Source: Anaerolineae bacterium
GTDB lineage: Bacteria > Chloroflexota > Anaerolineae > Promineifilales > Promineifilaceae
Assembly: GCA_015486215.1 (NCBI GenBank)
Contig: WFSA01000009.1
Span: 1-13,947, forward strand
DNA: 13,947 nucleotides
Direction: 5' to 3'
Every line of letters starts with the position of its first letter. The first letter of the stretch is position 1. The notes under the pieces were generated by a model. That model did not search any database. It was not told the DNA's origin and saw only the letters and a program-made list of their open reading frames with translations. This document shows, one piece after another, positions 2 to 13,947 of this stretch. The position numbers were made by a program, and so were the translations under genes.

Positions 2-1339
2 ATCGTCGATGAGTACAGGATGGAATTGCCCGCCGACGGCGGCTACCAGATCGAAATCGGCCTCTATTTGGCGGAAACAGGGCAGCGGCTGCAAGTTATG
101 CAGGGCGGACAGGCGACGGATCTGATTTTGATTGAGAAAACTATGGTGGAAACGGCCGTTGCCACAACAACAAGCACCCCTTCCACGCATACGCTCTCCC
201 TGCCACTCATCTTGAATATGCCGACGGTCACGCCATCTCCCACCCCGTTACCGACCGTCACCCCGCTGCCGACCGCCACTCCCAAGCCCGCCTTTCCCGT
301 TTATGAGGGTGCGCCGCTCGATTACGGGCAGATGGGGATACAGATGCACATTCAGCAGACATCGCTGCCTCCTCTTTTTGATCATATCCGCCGCTTGGGC
401 GTTGGATGGGTGAAGACGCAAGTGTCATGGAAATTGTATCAGCCGTATGCCGATCAATACGCAGAGGAACGATTTGCCGAATTGGATGAATTTGTCCGTC
501 TGGCAGAGGAAGCGGGCGTAAACGTGATGCTGGGGGTCTCGAAAGCTCCTGAATGGAGCCGCCCGACAACAGAAATGGATGGTGCGCCGACGGATTACGC
601 GCTATTTAGCGACTTTATGGGGGTGTTGGCGACGCGCTATCAAGGGCGGGTGGCGGCGTATGAGCTATGGAATGAGGCGAATTTGCAACGGGAATGGAAT
701 GGTGCGCCGTTGGGCGGAGATGAAGCGGCACGATTGATGCGGGCGGGGGCGACGGCCGTTCGCCAGGCGGATCCATCGGCACTGCTTATCAGTGGTGCAC
801 CGGCGGTGACGGGGATCAATGATGGGGTGACGGCCGTTGACGACCGCGTGTTCATGCGCCAGCTATTAAACGCAGGCACAGCCACTTTTGTAGACGGAAT
901 CGGCGTGCATCCTTACGGCTGGGCAAACCCACCTGATACAGAAGTCGGCACGCCCTCGCCCGCCACCAGCCATAATAATCATCCCAGCTTTTTCTTCCGC
1001 CAAACGCTGGATGAGTACGCCGCTCTGCTGAATGAATTCGACACGCCGCGCCCGCTCTGGCCGACAGAGTTCGGCTGGGCGACGTTTGACGGTTTAAACG
1101 CGGAGCCGCCCGCAGGGGTGGAGTATATGAATCAGGTGGACGAGTGGCAGCAGGCGGTTTATACGATGCGGGCGTTTGAGATGGGGCAGGAACGGCCGTT
1201 CGTCGCGCCGATGATCTTATGGAATTTGAATTTTGGCGCATATTTAGGGACGGAGTATGCTGAAGCGGGATATGGATTGCTGCGCGGAAATGGATCGGAG
1301 CGGCCAGTTTATTTGACGATTGAAGATAGCAAACCGTAA
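2..1339 (+). CDS. Clan GH-A (GH5-like) glycoside hydrolase, 5'-truncated by the window edge. An upstream domain is followed by a Pro/Thr-rich linker (aa ~45-90) and then a TIM-barrel catalytic domain.
   Basis: The ORF is open from position 2 with no in-frame stop, so the gene continues upstream of the window. It contains LWNEANL, an NE(P)-type acid/base motif, and PTEFGWA, a TE.G nucleophile motif; both are typical of GH5/clan GH-A. PTVTPSPTPLPTVTPLPTATPKP is a typical inter-domain PT linker. The stop codon is at 1337-1339. Confidence 0.7.
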   Translation: MVDEYRMELPADGGYQIEIGLYLAETGQRLQVMQGGQATDLILIEKTMVETAVATTTSTPSTHTLSLPLILNMPTVTPSPTPLPTVTPLPTATPKPAFPVYEGAPLDYGQMGIQMHIQQTSLPPLFDHIRRLGVGWVKTQVSWKLYQPYADQYAEERFAELDEFVRLAEEAGVNVMLGVSKAPEWSRPTTEMDGAPTDYALFSDFMGVLATRYQGRVAAYELWNEANLQREWNGAPLGGDEAARLMRAGATAVRQADPSALLISGAPAVTGINDGVTAVDDRVFMRQLLNAGTATFVDGIGVHPYGWANPPDTEVGTPSPATSHNNHPSFFFRQTLDEYAALLNEFDTPRPLWPTEFGWATFDGLNAEPPAGVEYMNQVDEWQQAVYTMRAFEMGQERPFVAPMILWNLNFGAYLGTEYAEAGYGLLRGNGSERPVYLTIEDSKP

Positions 1340-1647
1340 GGCGGCTCTTGGTGATAAATCTGTCGCGGTGTCGGTAACACCCCTTACAGACAAGTTGATA
1401 GAACTGTGGGAGTCTTGATGATGGGAATGATAGCATGGTTCAAATTAGGGTGAATCATCTTTGCCTTTATTGCGCGATTGGGCGACCATAAAGGAATAAA
1501 TTATAGGGGCGCGGCCTTATGCCCGCCCCCAAAGTATAAAGATCATCTTGCGTAAAATGAGCCATGTCGAATTTAGTATGGAAGCATAACGCGGATGGCT
1601 TCGCACGCGGATTTAGCGGATAAACGCGGATTTCCTGCTTTGATCCA

Positions 1648-1864
1648 CACTTTATTTTACACGAGTATCATGTAACTTCTCAATATTTCGGGATGACTAC
1701 AACGGATGAAAGAAATAAACGGATAGAGCAGTCGAGAAAACATCCGTTCATTTTCATGATCCGCTGTAGTCATACTAAAAACAAAATAATGTCCCCGCTT
1801 TTTTGAGAAGATACAGTATCATTAGGAAAATTTGTCAAGTCTCCCCAGAATACTAAGGGAAGGT
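1648..1864 (+). mobile_element. Composite MITE-like locus (copy A). A 5'-truncated type-1 element is interrupted by a nested 143-bp type-2 element. It consists of type-1 spacer/right half 1648..1671 + 1815..1864, with the type-2 element at 1672..1814.
   Basis: 1648-1671 (CACTTTATTTTACACGAGTATCAT) and 1815-1858 (AGTATCATTAGGAAAATTTGTCAAGTCTCCCCAGAATACTAAGG) together reconstitute the spacer and right half of the 112-bp element seen intact at 3871..3982 and 8468..8579. The intervening 1672..1814 has its own TIRs, GTAACTTCTCAATA ... TTTTTTGAGAAGATAC. It is flanked by a direct duplication AGTATCAT at 1664-1671 and 1815-1822. Confidence 0.65.
1672..1814 (+). mobile_element. Type-2 MITE-like element (143 bp) nested inside copy A, with an 8-bp target-site duplication AGTATCAT.
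   Basis: The TIR GTAaCTTCTCAATA at 1672-1685 matches the reverse complement of TATTGAGAAGATAC-like end ...TTTTTTGAGAAGATAC at 1799-1814. This is the same TIR as the type-1 element. The flanking 8-bp direct repeats sit at 1664-1671 and 1815-1822. A homologous segment (TAATACTTCGGGGTGAGTACAAC...CCCCAGTTTTTTGAGAAGATAC) occurs at 13594..13709. Confidence 0.6.
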
Positions 1865-1886
1865 TCGTTTTTAACTTTGGACTTTC

Positions 1887-1919
1887 AGGTGACAGGCACT
1901 TGGCAAGTGCCTGTCACCT
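1887..1919. repeat. Perfect 33-bp palindrome (15-bp arms, 3-nt centre GGC): AGGTGACAGGCACTT-GGC-AAGTGCCTGTCACCT. This is copy 1 of 2.
   Basis: Arms 1887-1901 and 1905-1919 are exact reverse complements. The second copy at 4027..4059 is identical except that the centre is GCG. Both are preceded by TTTC and followed by TTG, and both lie between a MITE copy and the start of a + strand gene. Confidence 0.8.
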
Positions 1920-1927
1920 TGGCCACA

Positions 1928-1957
1928 GTTATTTACGAGTTTTCCCTAAGAAGATAC
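1928..1957 (+). mobile_element. Internally deleted relic of the type-1 MITE, keeping a spacer fragment plus a solo right TIR.
   Basis: TATTTACGAGT ... TAAGAAGATAC resembles TATTTTACACGAGTA ... TGAGAAGATAC of the intact element. This is weak, eye-read similarity. Confidence 0.3.
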
Positions 1958-1967
1958 GATTCGATAT

Positions 1968-2300
1968 ATGAGCAAAGATAACGATACGCACCAGCATGAT
2001 GCAGAAAAAATAACACCCTTCCTCGCCCCTGAAAATATGGAGTATGTGATTTGCCCTGAATGTTACGGCAAAATGGCGAAGGATGCGCTCGTCTGCCCTC
2101 ATTGCGGCGGCACTCTCTCTGATGGCGTTCCTCATGATGATGCGCCAAAAAACAAGATGATCCATTATGTATGGATGGCTTTGATCGGCTTGGGGGCAAT
2201 TGTCATTATCGCGGGGCTTCTTATCGGTTTTGCTGGGCCGAGCATGATTATCGGCGGAATTTTGTTGTTAGCGGCATCGCTCACGAAACGGTTCGCTTGA
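1968..2300 (+). CDS. Small membrane protein (110 aa) with an N-terminal zinc ribbon (CPECYG...CPHCGG) and two C-terminal transmembrane helices.
   Basis: The ORF has two CxxC pairs 17 residues apart, followed by the hydrophobic stretches MIHYVWMALIGLGAIVIIAGLLIGF and MIIGGILLLAASL. It lies downstream of the MITE plus palindrome leader. I see no obvious SD, so the start assignment is tentative. Confidence 0.55.
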   Translation: MSKDNDTHQHDAEKITPFLAPENMEYVICPECYGKMAKDALVCPHCGGTLSDGVPHDDAPKNKMIHYVWMALIGLGAIVIIAGLLIGFAGPSMIIGGILLLAASLTKRFA

Positions 2301-2331
2301 TAAAAGCAAGTATTGCTCGCTATGCGTGCAT

Positions 2332-2391
2332 AAAAAACGGCCGTTTTTACTTCTCAGCCAAGATAGCATTGGGCGACCCAGCGGGTCGCCC
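2332..2391. terminator. Two palindromes in the gap between the convergent genes 1968..2300(+) and 2415..3851(-). They are AAAAAACGGCCGTTTTT (2332-2348) and a GC-rich hairpin GGGCGACCC-AGC-GGGTCGCCC (2371-2391). Together they are a candidate bidirectional terminator.
   Basis: The 9-bp GC stem with a 3-nt loop lies 20 nt past the minus-strand gene stop. The A6-CGGCCG-T5 palindrome gives a U-tail on either strand. Neither is a textbook stem plus U-tract on its own. Confidence 0.35.
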
Positions 2392-2414: not shown

Positions 2415-3851
2415 TTATTTAACGATAATGGGCAGATAGACCTCTCTTGCTTCTATGAAAAAGTGAGCCGGGCGGCTCCACGCGCCGGAGATCGTGTCAG
2501 ATTTGGCACGAATCCACCACGCGTACTCCCCTTTTGGCAGAGCGGTGGAGACGGTGTAGGAGCAGTTCTGGGTTGCGTTTTCGCAATGGGCGGCAACGGC
2601 CGTTACTTCACTTTGCCCGTAATCGTGTCCCCAATTGTACGTGCCATCGGAATTGACGGCGTATAGTTGGAATTCGTATTGAACGGCCGTTGTGATCGCC
2701 TCCCATGTCACGGCAAACGAGTCGCCATCCTGGGAAATATGCTTGCTGGGCGTAATCAACACCGAAGCGGGAAGCTCATTATCGTAATCGTCACAATGAT
2801 CTTTACGAGGATTGCCGCCTATATCGCAAGGGTAATCGGATGATTGGCCGGGGATAGGGCGAGGGTCATCAGTGGAAATGAGATCGTTTAATGCTCCCAT
2901 CTCGATCTGCTGGTCGCTGCCATCGCCTAAAGCGATGAGTCTGCCGCTTTCGCTGCCGTTAAATGTGTAATCAGCCAACGCATCAATCAAACGGAAAACG
3001 CCGTAATCATCCATAGCATCGAATGTACCATACCCGCCGTTACCAGTGGCAATCACTCTATGATCGGCGGCGTAATCATACCCGTTCGCGCTGCTGGGGC
3101 GCAGGATGACATACTCTTTTGCGGTATCGGCGATCGTGCCTACGCTCTCAAATTGGTCAATATAGGTGCGATAGTCGGTGCCACAATCATTTTCATAGGT
3201 TTGTACGATCATTTTGACATCGGATGGGTAATCGGCCAGCATCACATCGGTGCTGTCAAAATCGATCCATGGAGCCGAAAAGAAGAGGAACGCATTTTCG
3301 CCGTCTGTGCCGCCAAATCCATACTCCCGTATCATCGTATAGCTGACTGAGGTGAGCAGCCCGCCGCCAGAGGAGTGTCCGATCAGGCCGAATTTATTTT
3401 TATCAATGCGTGTTGGATAGAGGTCGGCCGTCCGCGTGAACACATTGGCAAGCTGCGAGCCAATGGTGGCGGTATTTGTGGTGTATTCGTCACAAACGGC
3501 CGTGTACCCCTTGCTGACAAGAAAGTAGAGAAGCTCATCATAAGAAGCACAAGGCATGTTCCAGCCGACAGCAAAGAATAGTACCGGCGCAGGTGACATT
3601 TGGTCACTGGGATAGTAGATGGTGACAGTATTGCTATCACCATCAACATCCATCGAGAAGGTGCTGGTCATGGTATCATGGCTGCCCCAACTGCCATACC
3701 CTGCGGCAATCGGCGCGATTGGCCCCTGATGGGGCTGCCTCAACGATATTAAGGCGAAGGTAAGTAATGTTGTCCCCATAATGAGGGGGAGGATGAGGAT
3801 AAAAATAAGTTTGGGGAAAGATTTGGAAAAAGACATTGTTATAATTTTCAT
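2415..3851 (-). CDS. Secreted or membrane-anchored alpha/beta-hydrolase. It is a GxSxG serine esterase/lipase resembling the PETase, chlorophyllase and dienelactone-hydrolase families, with a C-terminal FN3-like beta-sandwich domain.
   Basis: The N-terminal hydrophobic signal/anchor is KLIFILILPLIMGTTLLTFALISL. The nucleophile elbow is GLIGHSSGGG. The C-terminal ~100 aa (FAVTWEAITTAVQYEFQLYAVNSDGTYNWG...YTVSTALPKGEYAWWIRAKSD) resembles a fibronectin-III-type domain. The 478-aa ORF has no competing frame. Confidence 0.75.
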   Translation of the reverse strand: MKIITMSFSKSFPKLIFILILPLIMGTTLLTFALISLRQPHQGPIAPIAAGYGSWGSHDTMTSTFSMDVDGDSNTVTIYYPSDQMSPAPVLFFAVGWNMPCASYDELLYFLVSKGYTAVCDEYTTNTATIGSQLANVFTRTADLYPTRIDKNKFGLIGHSSGGGLLTSVSYTMIREYGFGGTDGENAFLFFSAPWIDFDSTDVMLADYPSDVKMIVQTYENDCGTDYRTYIDQFESVGTIADTAKEYVILRPSSANGYDYAADHRVIATGNGGYGTFDAMDDYGVFRLIDALADYTFNGSESGRLIALGDGSDQQIEMGALNDLISTDDPRPIPGQSSDYPCDIGGNPRKDHCDDYDNELPASVLITPSKHISQDGDSFAVTWEAITTAVQYEFQLYAVNSDGTYNWGHDYGQSEVTAVAAHCENATQNCSYTVSTALPKGEYAWWIRAKSDTISGAWSRPAHFFIEAREVYLPIIVK

Positions 3852-3870
3852 AGGATATTTAGTATCTTCT

Positions 3871-3982
3871 GTATCTTCTCAATAAATCGTGGACAAGACT
3901 TGACAAATTTCATCAGCACTTTATTTTACATGAGTACCATTAAGAAAATTTGTCAAGTCTCCCCCGAATACTGAGAAGATAC
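3871..3982 (+). mobile_element. Intact 112-bp type-1 MITE-like element (copy B) in the divergent promoter region between the hydrolase gene (-) and the sensor kinase gene (+).
   Basis: The TIR GTATCTTCTCAATA at 3871-3884 pairs with TATTCGG...TACTGAGAAGATAC ending at 3982. The internal 14-bp inverted repeat is GACTTGACAAATTT (3897-3910) and AAATTTGTCAAGTC (3946-3959), separated by a 35-bp spacer. A tandem partial duplicate GTATCTTCT sits immediately 5' at 3862-3870. It is the same element as 8468..8579 and 13503..13596. Confidence 0.75.
3900..3927 (+). promoter_or_regulatory. Sigma70-like promoter module inside MITE copy B. It is TTGACA-N16-TATTTT and reads toward the sensor kinase gene.
   Basis: A perfect -35 TTGACA at 3900-3905 is followed by a 16-nt spacer and TATTTT at 3922-3927, which keeps the conserved T1, A2 and T6 positions. 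The same module is present in copies C and D. In every copy it points at the adjacent gene. Confidence 0.35.
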
Positions 3983-4026
3983 CCTAATTTCGATAAAATA
4001 GATCAAATAAAGCTACAGGGGTTTTC

Positions 4027-4059
4027 AGGTGACAGGCACTTGCGAAGTGCCTGTCACCT
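4027..4059. repeat. Perfect 33-bp palindrome, copy 2 (centre GCG): AGGTGACAGGCACTT-GCG-AAGTGCCTGTCACCT.
   Basis: Arms 4027-4041 and 4045-4059 are exact reverse complements. Apart from the 3-nt centre it is identical to 1887..1919. It lies 45 bp downstream of MITE copy B and ~57 bp upstream of the kinase start codon. Confidence 0.8.
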
Positions 4060-4080
4060 TGAATTATTCGTATACCCCCC

Positions 4081-4116
4081 TCTACAAACGGCCGTCTTCA
4101 TGCTACAATGCTCCCA
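4081..4116 (+). promoter_or_regulatory. Candidate extended -10 promoter (TGcTACAAT at 4101-4109). Its predicted transcription start falls on the A of the kinase ATG, giving a leaderless mRNA.
   Basis: TG-n-TACAAT ends 7 nt before ATG 4116. The -35 region 4081-4086 (TCTACA) is weak. There is no SD before 4116. This is inference only. Confidence 0.25.
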
Positions 4117-6767
4117 TGATGCCCGCCCCCTATTTGAGCTATATTGATTTCAACCCCTACACATTCAACGCTGTCTCCCTATTTATCATCGGCTCACTCA
4201 GCGTTATCTATCTGCTGCGCCTCCAAAAGAAAACCGCCGCCTCGTGGTTCCTCATCACCAGCTTAGCCAGCTTCACGGCGGGCGTGATAGTCATGTTCTT
4301 CAGCGCCATCATCCTTTGGGGCGGTGTTTTGGATCTGTTCACGGACACCTTTGCCACCATCAGCATGGCCGCTCTGATCGGCTTTAACTACCATTATCCA
4401 CAACAAGTTACCTCCCGCGAGGCTGGTTTCGCACGTTTTTTTGCCGTCAGCATTAGCTTAACGGCCGTTATCATCAGCAGTTGGTATACGTGGCAAATTT
4501 ACAGAGTACATGCGTTTACAACGGCCGTTTCCCCCCTATTTTGGTTCCTGAATCCACTCATGTTTCTGGCCGCCCTGCTCGTCTCCATCCGCCGCGTCAT
4601 CATTATCGAACAACAAAAAACGGCAGCGGCAGGCTGGCATCATGCGTGGCTCGCCTTCTATCGGCCATCCCATCGTCAGGCGCGTTTATTGCGTAATTTC
4701 TCGTTAGCCTTATCGTTGGGATTGATACAAGGCATCGCCACTGGATTGAGCAGGACTGGACATATCTCGTCCCTGACGGCCGTTTACGCCATCAATCTCT
4801 CCCTGCTGCTGATGGTGGTTACCATCGTCTACGCCTCCTTTGAACTGACACAACAGCAGCCCGGTCTGATCATCCGTTTATTAGGACTTTCCCTGACGAC
4901 CTTATTACTGATTTTGGGCATTTTGGGCATATTTATGGTCAGTACCGCCATTGATTGGGTAAACATGCAAAACATCGCCTACACGAAAGTTGTGCAAAAA
5001 GTGGTTCGCGCTGACGAAACGGCCGCCTTGCCCGATGAAGTCGCCTACGTCGTCGCGTGGCCTAACGCGAAGACGGCGCAGTTGCTTTATGACAAACAGG
5101 GCACAATGGATATGCCATCCCTGATCGCCGAACAACAGCAAATAACGGCGAGAACGCTACCGCCCGCCGTCTGGATATCATTCATCCAGCCGCTCCTCCA
5201 CGCAGAAAACAGCACAACGGCCGTAAAATTCCGTTACGGATCAAACCCGCCCGGCTCTTGGCACCAATACGCCGCCTACACCTTTCGCCACGCTGGGATG
5301 GAGTACGAAGTCGGCTTCAAGTTGGCTGAGATGCGCCGCTTCCCCCGCGCCGTCAGCGTGGTTATGATTTGGGCGGTGATGTGCAGCACTCTCTTCATTC
5401 TCATCATTTTTCCGCTTTTTTTTAACGCTGATTTGATACGGCCATTAAACCGTTTGCTCGCTGGCGTGCAACAGGCGGATGACGGCGATCTAAACATCGC
5501 CATCCCTGTGGTACATGAAGATGAAGTCGGCTTTTTAACGGCCGCTTTCAACAAAATGGCCGCCTCATTACAAGATGAACTGACACAGCGACAACGCGCC
5601 CAAACAGAGTTACGCCATCTTGCCGATTCATTGGAGCGGCGCGTTGCCGCCCGTACCTACGAGTTGAGCGCATTATATGATGTTACCAAAGCGGCCAGCC
5701 AAGCACAAGATTTTCCCGCCTTGCTAACCGCCTCCCTCAACAGTGCCATCCGCGCCCTCAGCAGCGACGCTGGGTTTATTATTCTGACAGATGAAGAAGG
5801 GGTATCGCCGCACGCCACCTACCATCTAGCCACCCATCAAGGGATCGGCGATTGGCTGCCCCTTATTCAAAAAACGATTACCAACGGCGACTTTCTAGAA
5901 ATCATCAACCAACAAGACAAAGAACCCGTCCTCATCGCCAATACGTCCGCAGACCTACGTGCCCCGCATTTCATGCAGCTTATGCCGACGACGCTCCTCA
6001 TCGCGCCGTTATCGGCTGGAGAGCAGTTGTCGGGAGTGCTGATCGTCTACCGTGCTTTAGGACAAAGTTATAGCTTAAATGAGATTGCGCTGCTCATCTC
6101 AATCTCTGGACAACTGTCCATCGCCGCGCAAACAGACCGTCTGCGCCAACGCACCATCGTTTTGGAAGAGCGGCAGCGGCTCGCCCGCGACCTGCATGAT
6201 TCTGTCATCCAATCGCTTTATGGGCTGGCAACATTGACTGAAGTGGGAAAAATGCACGCCGCCGACGGAAATCTGGAGCCGATTGTGCCTATGTTCGCCA
6301 AAATCAGTAAGGCAGCACGGCAAGCGATTCGGGAAATGCGGCTGTTTATCCATCAATTGCGCCCGATGATTTTGGAACAGGAAGGGTTAGCCGACGCGCT
6401 GGAACTGCGGCTAACGGCCGTCGAAGGGCGTTCAGATGTGCAAGTGCGCCTGCAAGCCGATCCCGACCTGCGCCTGCCGCTGCCACTGGAAACCGCGCTC
6501 TATCAAATCGCGCAGGAAGCCCTCAACAACATTTTGCGTCACGCCCACGCGGAAACGATCATTATCACGCTGCACGGGCAAAACGGCCGTTTCATCCTAG
6601 AAATCCAAGACGACGGGCGCGGATTCGACCCGAATAAGGTTGACAACGGCCGTTTAGGGTTGAACAATATGCGGGCACGGGCGAAAGAGATTGGAGCTGA
6701 GTTTGCCATCACCTCCGCGCTCGGCATCGGAACCAAGATAAATATTGTGGTACATTATGACCCATAA
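4116..6767 (+). CDS. Sensor histidine kinase of the NarL-partner (HisKA_3) class. The N-terminal region has ~10 transmembrane helices and a ~130-aa extracytoplasmic loop, followed by HAMP, coiled-coil, GAF, HisKA_3 and HATPase_c domains.
   Basis: The H-box is ERQRLARDLHDSVIQSLYGL (HisKA_3 type). HAMP-like RPLNRLLAGVQQADDGDLNIAIP...GFLTAAFNKMAASLQDEL is present. A GAF-like segment (ALYDVTKAAS...GVLIVYRALGQ) follows. The ATPase has the N box QIAQEALNNILRHA and the G boxes DDGRGFD and GLGLNNMRARA. I prefer ATG 4116/4119 over the listed 4029, which lies inside the 33-bp palindrome. The stop codon at 6765-6767 overlaps the downstream regulator start. Confidence 0.85.
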   Translation: MMPAPYLSYIDFNPYTFNAVSLFIIGSLSVIYLLRLQKKTAASWFLITSLASFTAGVIVMFFSAIILWGGVLDLFTDTFATISMAALIGFNYHYPQQVTSREAGFARFFAVSISLTAVIISSWYTWQIYRVHAFTTAVSPLFWFLNPLMFLAALLVSIRRVIIIEQQKTAAAGWHHAWLAFYRPSHRQARLLRNFSLALSLGLIQGIATGLSRTGHISSLTAVYAINLSLLLMVVTIVYASFELTQQQPGLIIRLLGLSLTTLLLILGILGIFMVSTAIDWVNMQNIAYTKVVQKVVRADETAALPDEVAYVVAWPNAKTAQLLYDKQGTMDMPSLIAEQQQITARTLPPAVWISFIQPLLHAENSTTAVKFRYGSNPPGSWHQYAAYTFRHAGMEYEVGFKLAEMRRFPRAVSVVMIWAVMCSTLFILIIFPLFFNADLIRPLNRLLAGVQQADDGDLNIAIPVVHEDEVGFLTAAFNKMAASLQDELTQRQRAQTELRHLADSLERRVAARTYELSALYDVTKAASQAQDFPALLTASLNSAIRALSSDAGFIILTDEEGVSPHATYHLATHQGIGDWLPLIQKTITNGDFLEIINQQDKEPVLIANTSADLRAPHFMQLMPTTLLIAPLSAGEQLSGVLIVYRALGQSYSLNEIALLISISGQLSIAAQTDRLRQRTIVLEERQRLARDLHDSVIQSLYGLATLTEVGKMHAADGNLEPIVPMFAKISKAARQAIREMRLFIHQLRPMILEQEGLADALELRLTAVEGRSDVQVRLQADPDLRLPLPLETALYQIAQEALNNILRHAHAETIIITLHGQNGRFILEIQDDGRGFDPNKVDNGRLGLNNMRARAKEIGAEFAITSALGIGTKINIVVHYDP

Positions 6768-7434
6768 AACAGTCCCCTCCCCCTCCCCCACGCTGCGTAT
6801 TTTAATCGCTGACGACCACGCCATCGTCCGCGAAGGGCTGGAAGCGGTGATCGCCACCCAGCCAGATATGGCATTGGTGGGAACGGCCGTAAACGGAGTA
6901 GAAGCCGTCTCTCTAGCCGCACAGCTAAATCCCGACATGATCCTGATGGATTTGATGATGCCCCAGTTGGACGGATTAGCCGCTATTCAACAAATAACAA
7001 CCGCCAATCCAGCCGCCCGCATCCTCGTTCTCACCAGCTTCGCCGACGATGAACGGCTCTTTCCGGCCATCAAAGCGGGCGCGATGGGGTATCTGCTCAA
7101 AGACACCCTGCCCGCCGACCTGCTGCAAGCGATCCGCAATGTCGCTCAGGGAGAAACGTCCCTGCACCCGACCATCGCCCGCCGCATAATTCAAGAAATC
7201 CAACAGCCAGCCGCAAAAACGGCCGTTCCCGACCCCCTGACCGCCCGCGAAATGGAAACACTGCGCCTCATCGCTCGCGGCCTCACCAATAGGGAAATCG
7301 CCGCCGCGCTCACCATTCACCCCAAAACCGTCGCCAAATACGTCAGCACCATCCTGCAAAAACGGCACTTAGCCAACCGCACCCAAGCCGCCCTCTACGC
7401 ACTACGCGAAGGATTAGCCAGTTTAGACGAGTAA
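6757..7434 (+). CDS. NarL/FixJ-family response regulator with a REC receiver domain and a LuxR-type HTH.
   Basis: RILIADDHAIVREGL...MILMDLMMPQLDGL has the acidic pair and the phospho-acceptor Asp. LTAREMETLRLIARGLTNREIAAALTIHPKTVAKYVSTILQK is a LuxR/GerE HTH. ATG 6757 (MTHKTV...) overlaps the kinase stop, suggesting translational coupling. The alternative in-frame ATG 6745 gives MWYIMTHK. Confidence 0.85.
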   Translation: MTHKTVPSPSPTLRILIADDHAIVREGLEAVIATQPDMALVGTAVNGVEAVSLAAQLNPDMILMDLMMPQLDGLAAIQQITTANPAARILVLTSFADDERLFPAIKAGAMGYLLKDTLPADLLQAIRNVAQGETSLHPTIARRIIQEIQQPAAKTAVPDPLTAREMETLRLIARGLTNREIAAALTIHPKTVAKYVSTILQKRHLANRTQAALYALREGLASLDE

Positions 7435-7511
7435 TACACCGCTGCATACTATTTTCCTGATGGGATCAAAAGGTCAATTTCTTGAAGAAGTTGCCCTTTT
7501 TGGCGTGAGAA

Positions 7512-7553
7512 CTGGGTATAAATACCCACTCCAAAAGGCATCATTCTCCCCTA
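7512..7553 (+). promoter_or_regulatory. Conserved ~42-bp motif containing the palindrome GGGTAT-AA-ATACCC (7514-7527), followed by CACTCCAAAA...CATTCTCCCCT. This is copy 1 of 2.
   Basis: The second copy at 10185..10226 is CTGGGTAAAAATACCCACTCAAAA...TCATTCTCCCCTGTC. The palindromic core is conserved as 5-bp arms GGGTA/TACCC around 4 central A/T bases. It lies 78 bp downstream of the regulator stop and 134 bp upstream of the LamG gene ATG. Confidence 0.5.
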
Positions 7554-7653
7554 TCCATCGGGTATCGCCCCTTGTTACCATATAATGCATCCATTTATCG
7601 TACGGCAAAGTATGTGGGCAACGGCCGTAGTATCATTACAAGGAGCAGTAAGA

Positions 7654-8457: not shown

Positions 8458-8467
8458 AAAATATGCC

Positions 8468-8579
8468 GTATCTTCTCAATAAATCGTGGACAAGAGTTGA
8501 CAAATTTCATCAGCACTTTATTTTACACGAGTATCATTAGGAAAATTTGTCAACTCTCCCCAGAATACTGAGAAGATAC
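8468..8579 (+). mobile_element. Intact 112-bp type-1 MITE-like element (copy C) between the LamG gene and the lipoprotein gene.
   Basis: The TIRs are GTATCTTCTCAATA (8468-8481) and TACTGAGAAGATAC (8566-8579). The internal inverted-repeat arms here are GAGTTGACAAATTT and AAATTTGTCAACTC. Relative to copies B and D this is a compensatory C>G / G>C pair. The flanks AAATATGCC (left) and AATACGCCC (right) look like a degenerate 8-bp target-site duplication. Confidence 0.75.
8497..8524 (+). promoter_or_regulatory. TTGACA-N16-TATTTT promoter module inside MITE copy C, reading toward the lipoprotein gene.
   Basis: TTGACA is at 8497-8502 and TATTTT at 8519-8524. This is the same module as in copies B and D. 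The lipoprotein ATG is 123 bp downstream and has a strong SD. Confidence 0.35.
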
Positions 8580-10115: not shown

Positions 10116-10176
10116 AAATTGGACACTGATCACACTGATTTCACTGATTTTTATCTGTGCAATCAGTGTCCAATTT
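10116..10176. promoter_or_regulatory. 15-bp inverted repeat (AAATTGGACACTGAT / ATCAGTGTCCAATTT) enclosing three direct CACTGAT repeats at 9-bp spacing. It is iteron-like and possibly a terminator.
   Basis: The arms are at 10116-10130 and 10162-10176. CACTGAT occurs at 10124, 10133 and 10142, with a reverse-complement copy ATCAGTG at 10162-10168. It sits 63 bp after the lipoprotein stop and ~85 bp before the receiver ORF. The RNA stem would end in AAUUU/UUUUG. Confidence 0.45.
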
Positions 10177-10184
10177 TGCAAGAG

Positions 10185-10226
10185 CTGGGTAAAAATACCC
10201 ACTCAAAACCCACTCATTCTCCCCTG
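10185..10226 (+). promoter_or_regulatory. Copy 2 of the GGGTA-N4-TACCC motif (GGGTAAAAATACCC at 10187-10200), 68 bp upstream of the ATG of the receiver ORF.
   Basis: See 7512..7553. A possible -10 TATATC lies at 10240-10245. Confidence 0.5.
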
Positions 10227-10260
10227 TCAAAGAGAGGTGTATATCTGCTAATTTTGTAGT

Positions 10261-13338: not shown

Positions 13339-13502
13339 AAAAAAAACTCCTCTAGCTTACAGATCATATTCGTAGGCTTAACGAATATATTTGACTGTCA
13401 TTCCTGCCTTCGCTGAGCCCGCCCTCGTCGAGATGGGGGAATGACAAACCGTTAAGTTTACAACAATGCTTACAGATAGATGCACGAATAGAAGCCGCTT
13501 TG

Positions 13503-13709
13503 GTATCTTCTTAGTATTCTGGGGAGACTTGACAAATTTTCCTAATGATACTCGTATAAAATAAAGTGCTGATGAAATTTGTCAAGTCTTGTCCATAATA
13601 CTTCGGGGTGAGTACAACAAATCAAGAAAGGAATAAATTGCATCAGTCGAGTCAACCTGCTCTTTTCCAAATCTGCTGTACTCATGTCCCCAGTTTTTTG
13701 AGAAGATAC
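13503..13709 (-). mobile_element. Chimeric MITE-like element (copy D) in reverse orientation, flanked by a perfect 9-bp target-site duplication GCCGCTTTG. It is a type-1 body (13503-13596) fused to a type-2 3' portion (13597-13709).
   Basis: The left TIR is GTATCTTCTTAGTATT and the right end is TTTTTTGAGAAGATAC. The 9-bp direct repeats are at 13494-13502 and 13710-13718. The internal inverted repeat is GACTTGACAAATTT / AAATTTGTCAAGTC. The segment 13597-13709 matches the type-2 element 1690-1814 in the same way (AATACTTCGGGGTGAGTACAAC...CCCCAGTTTTTTGAGAAGATAC). Confidence 0.7.
13558..13585 (-). promoter_or_regulatory. TTGACA-N16-TATTTT promoter module of MITE copy D on the minus strand, reading toward the NfeD-like/flotillin operon.
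   Basis: On the minus strand, TTGACA is at 13585-13580 and TATTTT at 13563-13558. The predicted leader to ATG 13338 is ~210 nt and contains a 9-bp-stem hairpin (13396-13404 / 13438-13446). Confidence 0.3.
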
Positions 13710-13947
13710 GCCGCTTTGTCGTTAAGACAAAACGGCCGTTATCACGATCTCTATCCAGAGTGATATGGTTGCAGAATGGGGCTAACTGTATGCGAAGGTA
13801 CGCAGAACAGAACGGCAAAGCCGCCCAAGTCAGCAATATAGAACTCCTATTATAGGGAATACGGGGGGATGTGACAGTAACGGGTCACATCAAATAGGCA
13901 CTTTTGGTTTCATAACCAATCTATCCTCCACCGGGTCTTAGGGAAGG

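Follow-up and report, generated by a model that had tools for sequence, protein, structure and literature searches.

The two palindromes that precede the zinc-ribbon gene and the sensor kinase gene in the window (the whole stretch of 13,947 nucleotides analyzed in this study) very probably belong to a dispersed, REP-like hairpin family and are not control elements of either gene. Our reading of this family, to which we assign a probability of about 0.65, is that it is an untagged, REP/REPIN-like family with a single-strand intermediate handled by a RAYT-like enzyme, and with a role at RNA 3' ends where the hairpins are transcribed. Taken by themselves, RAYT-type maintenance and the 3'-end role are tentative, with odds at or slightly short of even.

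The two palindromes of the window

Both palindromes have exact 15-bp arms that are identical between the copies, as the first-pass annotation had reported, and each stands, as it also stated, between a MITE copy and a start codon on the + strand (Table 1). The distance to the ATG is 48 nt from the end of copy 1 (ATG 1968) and 56 nt from the end of copy 2 (ATG 4116). The likeness extends slightly past the arms: positions 1883–1921 and 4023–4061 are alike over 39 nt (TTTC…TG) with two differences, both of them central, and with its center GGC all 33 nt of copy 1 form a perfect odd palindrome. At up to three mismatches, the arm has four matches in the window compared with 0.21 expected, and a count of four was reached in 0 of 200 shuffles. 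The great stability predicted for the stem-loop as RNA or DNA was borne out by folding (about −30 kcal/mol), with both copies forming a 15-bp stem and a 3-nt loop in RNA; pieces of 66 nt gave free energies between −29 and −35 kcal/mol, at a z score near −7. Against a covariance model derived from hairpin copies (model R1), copy 1 scored 57 bits on both strands and copy 2 scored 60.6 bits. Rfam covariance models gave no match in the window at gathering thresholds and, at E ≤ 10, only sub-threshold generic microRNA-precursor hairpins, and a terminator scan of the window called neither copy.

Table 1 Features of the window and of other loci that carry the hairpin
Feature	Locus	Position	Strand	Remarks
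GH5 glycosidase gene	window	20–1339	+	
MITE copy 1, right part	window	1815–1857	+	remaining right end AAGATAC at 1951–1957, past the 88-nt insert
88-nt segment	window	1858–1945		hairpin copy 1 at its center; splits the MITE right end (MITE alignment)
Hairpin copy 1	window	1887–1919		AGGTGACAGGCACTT-GGC-AAGTGCCTGTCACCT, 15-bp arms
Zinc-ribbon membrane protein gene	window	1968–2300	+	start 10 nt past the MITE end
Gene for a 478-aa protein	window	2415–3851	−	no Pfam match
MITE copy 2	window	3864–3982	+	carries a promoter-like site facing hairpin copy 2
Promoter-like site TTGACA-16-TATTTT	window	3900–3927	+	in MITE copy 2, directed at hairpin copy 2
Hairpin copy 2	window	4027–4059		same arms as copy 1, center GCG
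Promoter-like site TCTACA-17-TACAAT	window	4081–4109	+	TG-extended −10; ends 7 nt before ATG 4116; downstream of hairpin copy 2
HAMP-GAF-HisKA_3 sensor kinase gene	window	4116–6767	+	probable start ATG 4116
NarL-type response regulator gene	window	6745–7434	+	
RAYT-like ORF	L004	5588–6391		NCBIfam ‘REP-associated tyrosine transposase’, E 3e-18, below curated cut-off
RAYT-like ORF	L061	3700–4359		NCBIfam ‘REP-associated tyrosine transposase’, E 2e-13, below curated cut-off
RAYT-like ORF	L028	6282–6890		NCBIfam ‘REP-associated tyrosine transposase’, E 8e-8, below curated cut-off
Hairpin in lysA (diaminopimelate decarboxylase)	L030, L049			same codon position, two genera
Hairpin in hsdR (type I restriction R subunit)	L046			between helicase and C-terminal domains
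Hairpin in ApbE gene	L006			within the ApbE domain
Hairpin in gene for endonuclease-domain protein	L041			between its two matched domains

Two details of the loops had to be revised. The centers of the window pair had been described as flipped, but on the opposite strand GGC reads GCC, not GCG; the two centers lie two adjacent substitutions apart, or a flip plus one substitution. The sequence GCGA in copy 2 had been taken for a GNRA tetraloop, but its A pairs in the 15-bp stem, which leaves a predicted triloop GCG, and the loops of the family vary in sequence and length without a bias toward the sense strand. We regard two further resemblances as probably coincidental, arguing from the variable outer stem and the paired state of the sequence: a 10-nt identity of the 3' arm with the anticodon arm of tRNA-Asp, and a partial Shine-Dalgarno complementarity of AGGTGA.

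Structure and covariation of the hairpin

The usual unit of the family is a 15-bp stem with a loop of 3–4 nt, i.e. 33 nt or 11 codons. Of 68 copies, 42 have a stem of exactly 15 bp, the loop has 3 nt in 47 and 4 nt in 12 of the 73 unique copies, and the spacer between the arms ranges from 1 to 6 nt. In the Chloroflexota copies, pairing beyond 15 bp was no better than in mismatched controls and the flanks were not conserved; an insertion of the element into pre-existing terminator stems was rejected because such additional pairing did not exceed the controls. Flank bias is limited to the adjacent base and is symmetric (5' A/C, 3' T/G). The tags of REP elements are absent from the half-flanks, with GTAG/CTAC in 7 and CGTC/GACG in 0 of 146, and target duplications of 1–8 bp at the 33-nt boundary were not above expectation among the 73 unique copies.

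Changes in the stem were always compensated, and conservation is greatest beside the loop and decays outwards. At the stem pairs 8/38 and 9/37 of the 47 triloop copies, we counted 14 double changes and no single-sided one. Model R1 retrieves diverged members with fully compensated changes, such as AGGTGCGACGCACTT-CCA-AAGTGCGTCGCACCT with four compensated pairs, and the members of a GACAGTCAC subfamily, two of which have loops of 27 and 56 nt. The arm is itself self-complementary at 10 of its 15 positions, the variant arm GACAGTCACC is perfectly palindromic over its 15 nt and likewise has the AG…CT form, and lone arms are rare.

Relative to the upstream gene, the loop sequence showed neither a sense bias nor an enrichment of GNRA. 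At one orthologous locus, sampled in one genome bin and two metagenome assemblies, the loop reads CAA in two assemblies and TTG in the third, with flanks that are 99–100% identical. The loop inversion proposed for the window pair thus holds for the family but not for the window's own centers. Such a flip was seen in one of four orthologous comparisons and is, we reason, unlikely to be an assembly artifact, given arms of 15 bp and typical assembly word sizes.

Distribution of the family

Scanning one genome per species recovered the core GACAGGCACTT-N1-7-AAGTGCCTGTC at no fewer than 64 loci in at least 32 assemblies. Together with the placement at gene ends, this upholds the earlier suggestion of a separate small REP-like repeat family. 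The matches listed are mostly from Chloroflexota of the Anaerolineae type (Ardenticatenaceae, Promineifilaceae, Ca. Leptofilum, Caldilineaceae, Thermoflexales, and Anaerolineales), and several genomes contribute 5–7 loci each among them. Second copies inside the 8-kb loci amount to about 2 per 64, which translates into tens of exact-core copies per genome as a rough estimate from a sample that is biased to such copies. In the variants from Saprospiraceae/Lewinellaceae the outer stem is AGAT/ATCT in every case. Those from Clostridium sp. Marseille-P3244 and a Eubacteriales bin have a GGG/CCC outer stem, a palindromic 6-nt center and longer arms, and the clostridial variants carry A/T runs that resemble intrinsic terminators. 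Phage records, plasmid records and viral contigs contained no copies.

A metagenome scan in which the outer 10 bp alone were kept constant showed that stems of 10–11 bp recur by chance among millions of terminator hairpins. Most of what it matched was not the hairpin family but inverted (GACAGGT)n arrays, chance terminators and a family whose loop GGGACGTTTCT is conserved. Having 10 bp of stem in common is, by itself, poor evidence that two hairpins are related. Single matches in a Bacillota bin and a Deltaproteobacteria bin carry little weight because stems of this length recur by chance, and the single-copy matches outside Chloroflexota (L010, L012) may reflect chance or mis-binning. The contig labeled ‘Hadersleviella’ (L031) is probably mis-binned, judging by its Chloroflexota-like composition and density of ACGGCCGT.

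An all-against-all ORF comparison of the 64 listed loci revealed no recurrent neighbor gene, and Pfam searches with representatives of the ORF clusters beside the hairpins returned ABC ATPases, epimerases and similar families. In literature full text the arm sequences matched unrelated primers only, and the REP literature yielded family definitions and nothing on this hairpin sequence. To our knowledge, small palindromic repeats have hardly been described in Chloroflexota.

Placement relative to genes

The hairpins are concentrated at gene ends. A stop codon of an ORF ≥100 aa lies within 30 nt of 40 of 68 copies (59%), with a peak at 2–14 nt, compared with 21.6% of random intergenic 33-nt windows from the same loci (binomial p = 3e-11 for the excess). 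In the first-pass annotation, many copies scattered at random, including in coding regions, were to count against a link to these genes; the link fails on this count, copies being numerous and some of them lying in coding regions, although their scatter is biased. Seventeen hairpins are located between convergent and eight between divergent genes. Where genes run in tandem, the start codon of the second gene often follows just 12–45 nt past the hairpin, which thus nearly fills the intercistronic gap, with the reservation that gene boundaries were set by a crude ORF rule and that distances on the start side cannot be relied on, as the ORF finder is given stop and start codons by the hairpin. 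A downstream T-run or U-tract was not enriched in the Chloroflexota copies. One leader position is reliable: in two Leptofilum species (L014 and L036), the hairpin is framed by a conserved GGTATAAT and the start codon (ATG) of an IclR-type gene, and between these two leaders the stem agrees in full and the flanks at about 80% of positions.

Five copies lie inside genes (Table 1), all of them with a 3-nt loop, so that 11 codons are added or replaced in frame. Two of the three reading frames of the hairpin are free of stop codons, and four of the five genic copies use the frame VTGTx(K/E)VPVT. The segment encoded by the hairpin in lysA maps to a variable loop of solved structures, immediately ahead of the conserved YDVVGPICE. 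Between the two lysA genes (L030 and L049), the protein is 60% identical and the DNA around the hairpin about 70%, and the arms agree at 30 of 30 positions, third codon positions included. From these sequences we estimate that such identity would be very unlikely without a constraint on the nucleic acid (0.72^30, about 5e-5), unless the element was repeatedly acquired at the same site.

RAYT-like genes and sister hairpins

A search of the loci examined with RAYT and IS200 sequences gave three candidates, all of which Pfam and NCBIfam supported; these RAYT-like ORFs are listed in Table 1. The RAYT-like gene of L028 is bracketed by AGGACTGSCAGTCCT doublets. In L061, the doublet AGATTGGGCCAATCT-CGGA-AGATTGGCCCAATCT lies 26 nt before the ATG of the RAYT-like gene, and a second doublet of 33 nt (16+1+16) is situated in frame within this gene, past the HFH motif. 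Such AGATTGGNCCAATCT doublets, to which those of L061 belong, have a 15+3/4+15 build, as in the hairpin family, and recur in several of the same genomes; in L003, one of them directly abuts the hairpin, after a stop codon. The end of a RayT-like gene of Clostridium, which lies in conserved synteny, is formed by a degenerate relative of the hairpin element found in clostridia, and the matching site in a related genome, after transketolase, holds a long palindrome with the same outer arms and without the GACAGGCAC core. Within the hairpin loci, we found no RAYT-like gene flanked by the exact hairpin, and the two Chloroflexota ones carry other palindromes. An IS200 copy in L001 was rejected as partner, since its own hairpin is unrelated and the copy lies 6 kb from the family hairpin.

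Comparison with known systems

REP elements are short palindromic stem-loops that are located near or overlap stop codons and occasionally lie within ORFs (PMC3733652). Their superfamilies are tagged by GTAG or CGTC (Di Nocera 2013, PMC3733652), and REP/REPIN elements are mobilized by RAYT (Y1/HUH) transposases (Nunvar 2010, PMC2817692; Di Nocera 2013, PMC3733652). The hairpins studied here resemble REPs as palindromic stem-loops of 20–40 nt that are multi-copy, mostly extragenic, near stop codons and sometimes in ORFs. As in REPINs, each hairpin is an inverted doublet of a 15-nt quasi-palindromic unit, and the sister AGATTGGNCCAATCT doublets have the same build. The likeness extends to the REP/REPIN-RAYT system that Bertels and Rainey reportedly described in 2011, in that RAYT-like genes occur in the same genomes and the sister family abuts one of them, but a hairpin-flanked RAYT-like gene was not found within the hairpin loci. 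Furthermore, the hairpin has no unpaired GTAG or CGTC tag, its stem is perfect and bulge-free, and the stem sequence, unlike what is usual for REPs, is not confined to a species or genus but common to several orders and phyla.

Rickettsia palindromic elements (RPEs), attributed to Ogata in 2000, are said to be selfish DNA residing in frame within protein-coding genes. They are also mentioned in PMC3733652. Our genic copies share with them the in-frame insertion into surface or linker regions of functional proteins (lysA, hsdR, ApbE), the frame being preserved by a length of 33 nt. In contrast to the hairpin, of which the majority of copies is extragenic, RPEs have about 100–150 bp, are CGTC-tagged and occur only in Rickettsia. 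Stabilization of mRNA 3' ends by REP-type elements was reportedly described by Newbury in 1987, and Liang, Rudd and Deutscher are said to have reported in 2015 that REPs at most 15 nt from the stop codon stall ribosomes. The hairpins resemble such stabilizers and intrinsic terminators in position, as stable hairpins a few nt past the stop codon that are frequent between convergent genes. They differ from intrinsic terminators in that the U-tract is missing in the Chloroflexota copies and one identical sequence is reused genome-wide.

Flip/flop hairpins are found in the terminal repeats of parvoviruses and AAV, and short spacers of inverted repeats also invert by template switching. The inverted loop described above is similar to AAV flip/flop in that both orientations occur at one orthologous locus with identical flanks, but it is a polymorphism of a chromosomal repeat and not a mechanism of linear-genome replication. 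In our analysis, the element appears to fit the workings of REP/REPIN elements and its genic copies those of Rickettsia RPEs, with the tag lacking and the RAYT partner being a candidate. The classes of classical MITE, intrinsic terminator and Rfam family were ruled out by the absence of a target duplication, a U-tract and an Rfam match, respectively.

Relation to the neighboring genes and MITEs

Orthologues of the two genes do not share the palindromes. Upstream of the closest kinase orthologue (93% identity, L187) there are toxin-antitoxin genes and neither a MITE nor the hairpin; its homology to the window starts about 12 nt past the hairpin and takes in the TGCTACAAT box. Hairpin and MITE are also missing upstream of a 53% kinase orthologue (L188), and a 56% orthologue (L189) with about 50 nt of upstream DNA is uninformative. 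The 61% zinc-ribbon orthologues are located after an ABC-F gene and before a Bax1-I gene and have no hairpin. A role of the palindromes that is tied to the zinc-ribbon and kinase genes or to the adjacent NarL-type regulator, as the first reading of the window had proposed, thus found no support in the 93% and 53% kinase orthologues or the 61% zinc-ribbon orthologues. The promoter with an extended −10 that this reading had assigned to the kinase itself, downstream of the palindrome, was recovered at the TCTACA-17-TACAAT site and is conserved in the hairpin-less orthologue L187.

The MITE is about 117 nt long with the terminal inverted repeat GTATCTTCTCA(A/G)TA and has four copies in the window. 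Its core was absent from all 184 other loci examined, and because of this absence the pairing of MITE and hairpin is, as far as these sequences indicate, peculiar to this genome. A composite unit of MITE and hairpin was rejected, since the MITE core is missing at all the other loci examined and the two window copies have unrelated sequence between MITE and hairpin. Next to hairpin copy 1, the canonical MITE end …GAATACTAAGAAGATAC is interrupted: MITE copy 1 reads …GAATACTAAG, then the 88 nt, then AAGATAC. This 88-nt segment is bracketed by a direct repeat of CTAAG (1853–1857 and 1946–1950) and forms an imperfect end-to-end hairpin with GGAA…TTCC termini (DNA fold −22.5 kcal/mol, z −8.2). Its insertion into the MITE is a single instance, and its flanks had no further match in the window or in the other loci examined.

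A gene-specific cis-element, whether a leader attenuator, a processing site or an operator for the NarL-type regulator or the zinc-ribbon protein, would suit the window copies, which precede start codons by 48–56 nt and follow promoter-like sites in MITEs, and also the Leptofilum hairpin that is kept in the 5' leader, 4–6 nt before the IclR-type gene. We consider this explanation barely tenable and, on the sequence comparisons, largely refuted: neither the kinase orthologues of 93% and 53% identity nor those of the zinc-ribbon gene have the hairpin upstream, the same hairpin stands beside unrelated housekeeping genes in at least 32 assemblies, and copy 2 precedes the kinase promoter that is conserved and hence lies outside that transcript. 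As members of a dispersed family, the window copies would be secondary, late arrivals in intergenic regions that MITEs had already colonized, with copy 1 brought in on the 88-nt insert into the MITE end. With a transcription start in the MITE, copy 1 could be part of the leader of the zinc-ribbon gene, an arrangement that is not ancestral, and copy 2, being upstream of the kinase's own promoter, could act only on read-through from the promoter-like site of the MITE. At most, the window hairpins may block or structure read-through from MITE-borne promoters, and they are not to be taken for regulators of the two-component system.

Possible origin and function

A REP/REPIN-like family would spread, or be kept up, via a single-strand DNA hairpin intermediate handled by a candidate RAYT-like (Y1/HUH) enzyme. 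We infer such handling because a sister family of 33-nt hairpins with like architecture abuts and interrupts a RAYT-like gene. Where transcribed, the stem-loop of about −30 kcal/mol would be a 3'-end barrier or a U-tract-less terminator of the upstream gene; termination by the Chloroflexota copies, in which the U-tract is missing, is a conjecture. The stem-loop might instead be a host-selected, factor-dependent RNA signal, either a standardized bidirectional terminator or a hairpin protecting mRNA 3' ends, which a conserved RNA-binding protein or nuclease would recognize and which was copied because it is useful. Such a signal would account for the enrichment 2–14 nt past stop codons and between convergent genes, its perfect two-fold symmetry would work for either strand, and the nucleotide-level conservation at orthologous sites and the clostridial A/T runs speak for it as well. 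We nevertheless regard it as doubtful, as the Chloroflexota copies have neither a U-tract nor a loop or strand bias, full termination would cut operons in those tandem pairs where the next start codon is 12–45 nt away, and in-frame copies in essential genes such as lysA would be harmful if they were terminators.

Conservation of the stem sequence itself, beyond pairing, across orders and in lysA would also be expected of a duplex-DNA site for a dimeric global regulator or a nucleoid- or chromosome-organizing protein (cf. parS, matS, CIRCE), with the arm as half-site. The symmetric preference for the flanking base (5' A/C, 3' T/G) agrees with such a site, and a perfect RNA helix is hard to read sequence-specifically. 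However, the half-sites are spaced 1–6 nt apart, and 27–56 nt in variants, which rigid dimers rarely tolerate; compensated variants retain the pairing and alter the half-site, lone arms are rare and the placement hugs stop codons, all of which makes a duplex site improbable. An operator of a dimeric transcription factor was rejected in view of the 1–6 nt spacer, the diverse neighbors and the absence of the hairpin from orthologous promoters. The hairpin might also be a miniature cut-and-paste transposon (MITE) with the arms as terminal inverted repeats of a DDE transposase, and the 88-nt palindromic insert with copy 1, bounded by the 5-bp direct repeat CTAAG inside another MITE, would be in line with this. 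Target duplications are, however, absent at the 33-nt boundary among 73 unique copies, conservation peaks beside the loop and falls outwards, which is the opposite of transposon ends, the 88-nt flanks are unrepeated in the loci examined and no transposase is recurrent nearby, so that this origin is very improbable.

Beyond a REP/REPIN-like origin, the uniformity of the stem across orders, phyla and orthologous sites is not usual for decaying selfish repeats and points to a sequence-specific factor. The hairpin could be a sequence-constrained signal for a putative trans-acting factor (a Y1/HUH enzyme or an RNA- or DNA-binding protein) common to Chloroflexota, Saprospiraceae and some Clostridia. 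This would explain the stem identity of 30/30 against a flank divergence of 20–30% as well as the exclusively compensated variants, and we nonetheless consider it unlikely. If true, a cross-phylum class of frame-preserving 33-nt hairpins, including the AGATTGGNCCAATCT doublets, would exist that enter after stop codons and into protein loops. The family is in any case unusually uniform, with a strict 15-bp stem, a frame-keeping length of 33 nt, an occurrence beyond one phylum and conservation within an essential gene, and it offers a tractable case for distinguishing REP-like upkeep by a dedicated enzyme from host selection.

Gene starts and annotation

The zinc-ribbon gene is a real gene, with 61% homologues beside Bax1-I genes elsewhere. 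Gene callers placed the start of the kinase at GTG 4029, within hairpin copy 2 (912 aa). This start is probably wrong and ATG 4116 the true one, because the 93%-identical orthologue begins at the ATG equivalent to 4116 (883 aa). The hairpin can serve as an annotation marker for false start codons and false ORF extensions, and it is useful for recognizing mis-binned contigs.

An iterated palindromic octamer

The octamer ACGGCCGT, which is palindromic and forms the core of AACGGCCGTT, occurs at 27 sites in the 13.9 kb of the window, compared with an expected number of 0.24, and these sites are both genic and intergenic. Its density was 1–2.75 per kb in most of the Ardenticatenales/Promineifilales-type loci, and no site was found in the Clostridia or Saprospiraceae loci of the comparison set. 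This octamer is a HIP1-like sequence of the Ardenticatenales/Promineifilales-type clade, resembling HIP1 in that it is also a highly iterated palindrome.

The octamer also underlies AAAAACGGCCGTTTTT, one of two ordinary hairpins that separate the convergent zinc-ribbon and 478-aa genes. This hairpin is flanked on both sides by A and T runs, and the second one has the form GGGCGACCC-AGC-GGGTCGCCC. This pair shows that the window contains conventional terminator-like hairpins as well.

Positions of repeats and hairpins in the window and in loci from other genomes and metagenomes
Feature	Locus	Positions
ACGGCCGT, example sites	window	152-159, 2337-2344, 4088-4095, 13732-13739
MITE copies	window	1639-1857 (interrupted), 3864-3982, 8461-8579, 13502-13595 (- strand)
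Element nested in MITE copy 1	window	about 1672-1814
Hairpins between zinc-ribbon and 478-aa genes	window	2325-2350, 2370-2395
48-nt repeat	window	7508-7555, 10181-10228
Separate palindrome, 24-nt arms	window	10116-10176
Small-palindrome doublets (AGGACTGSCAGTCCT, AGATTGGNCCAATCT families)	L028	6190-6249, 6893-6953
	L061	3640-3673, 3929-3961
	L003	1800-1832
11-nt-loop hairpins	L114	3543, 4576, 5837, 8064
Adapter-like string CGTGTGCTCTTCCGATCT	L020	3179-3197

MITEs, other repeats and the kinase start

Members of the MITE family are ~117 nt long, with the terminal repeat GTATCTTCTCA(A/G)TA and a promoter-like TTGACA-16-TATTTT in the interior. The first copy harbours a second element with identical ends, which is bordered on both sides by the 8-bp direct repeat AGTATCAT. 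The two copies of the 48-nt repeat (81% identical) are located upstream of a LamG-domain gene and of a small receiver-like gene, respectively. In public gene calls the sensor kinase starts at GTG 4029, within the REP-like hairpin (912 aa); comparison with an orthologue and a conserved -10 box indicate ATG 4116 as its predicted start (883 aa).

Related palindromes and assembly quality in other loci

Two more small palindrome families, AGGACTGSCAGTCCT and AGATTGGNCCAATCT, form doublets around genes resembling REP-associated tyrosine transposases (RAYT) in Promineifilaceae, and the RAYT-like gene itself carries one 33-nt doublet as an in-frame insert. The L031 contig, binned as the Saprospiraceae member Ca. 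Hadersleviella danica, is probably mis-binned: with eight ACGGCCGT sites in 8 kb and 55% G+C, it resembles the Chloroflexota loci and differs from the Saprospiraceae loci, which have 35–37% G+C. In Clostridium sp. Marseille-P3244 (L020), two hairpin copies are separated by the string CGTGTGCTCTTCCGATCT, which we take to match an Illumina adapter; this points to contaminating adapter sequence or to chimeric joining within the assembly.

A metagenomic hairpin family, AGGTGACAGG-GGGACGTTTCT-CCTGTCACCT, has the outer stem of the window hairpin and a conserved 11-nt loop. Four copies reside on one 8.5-kb contig (L114), and further loci include L066, L067, L069 and L080. In soil metagenomes, the heptad GACAGGT occurs in inverted arrays.
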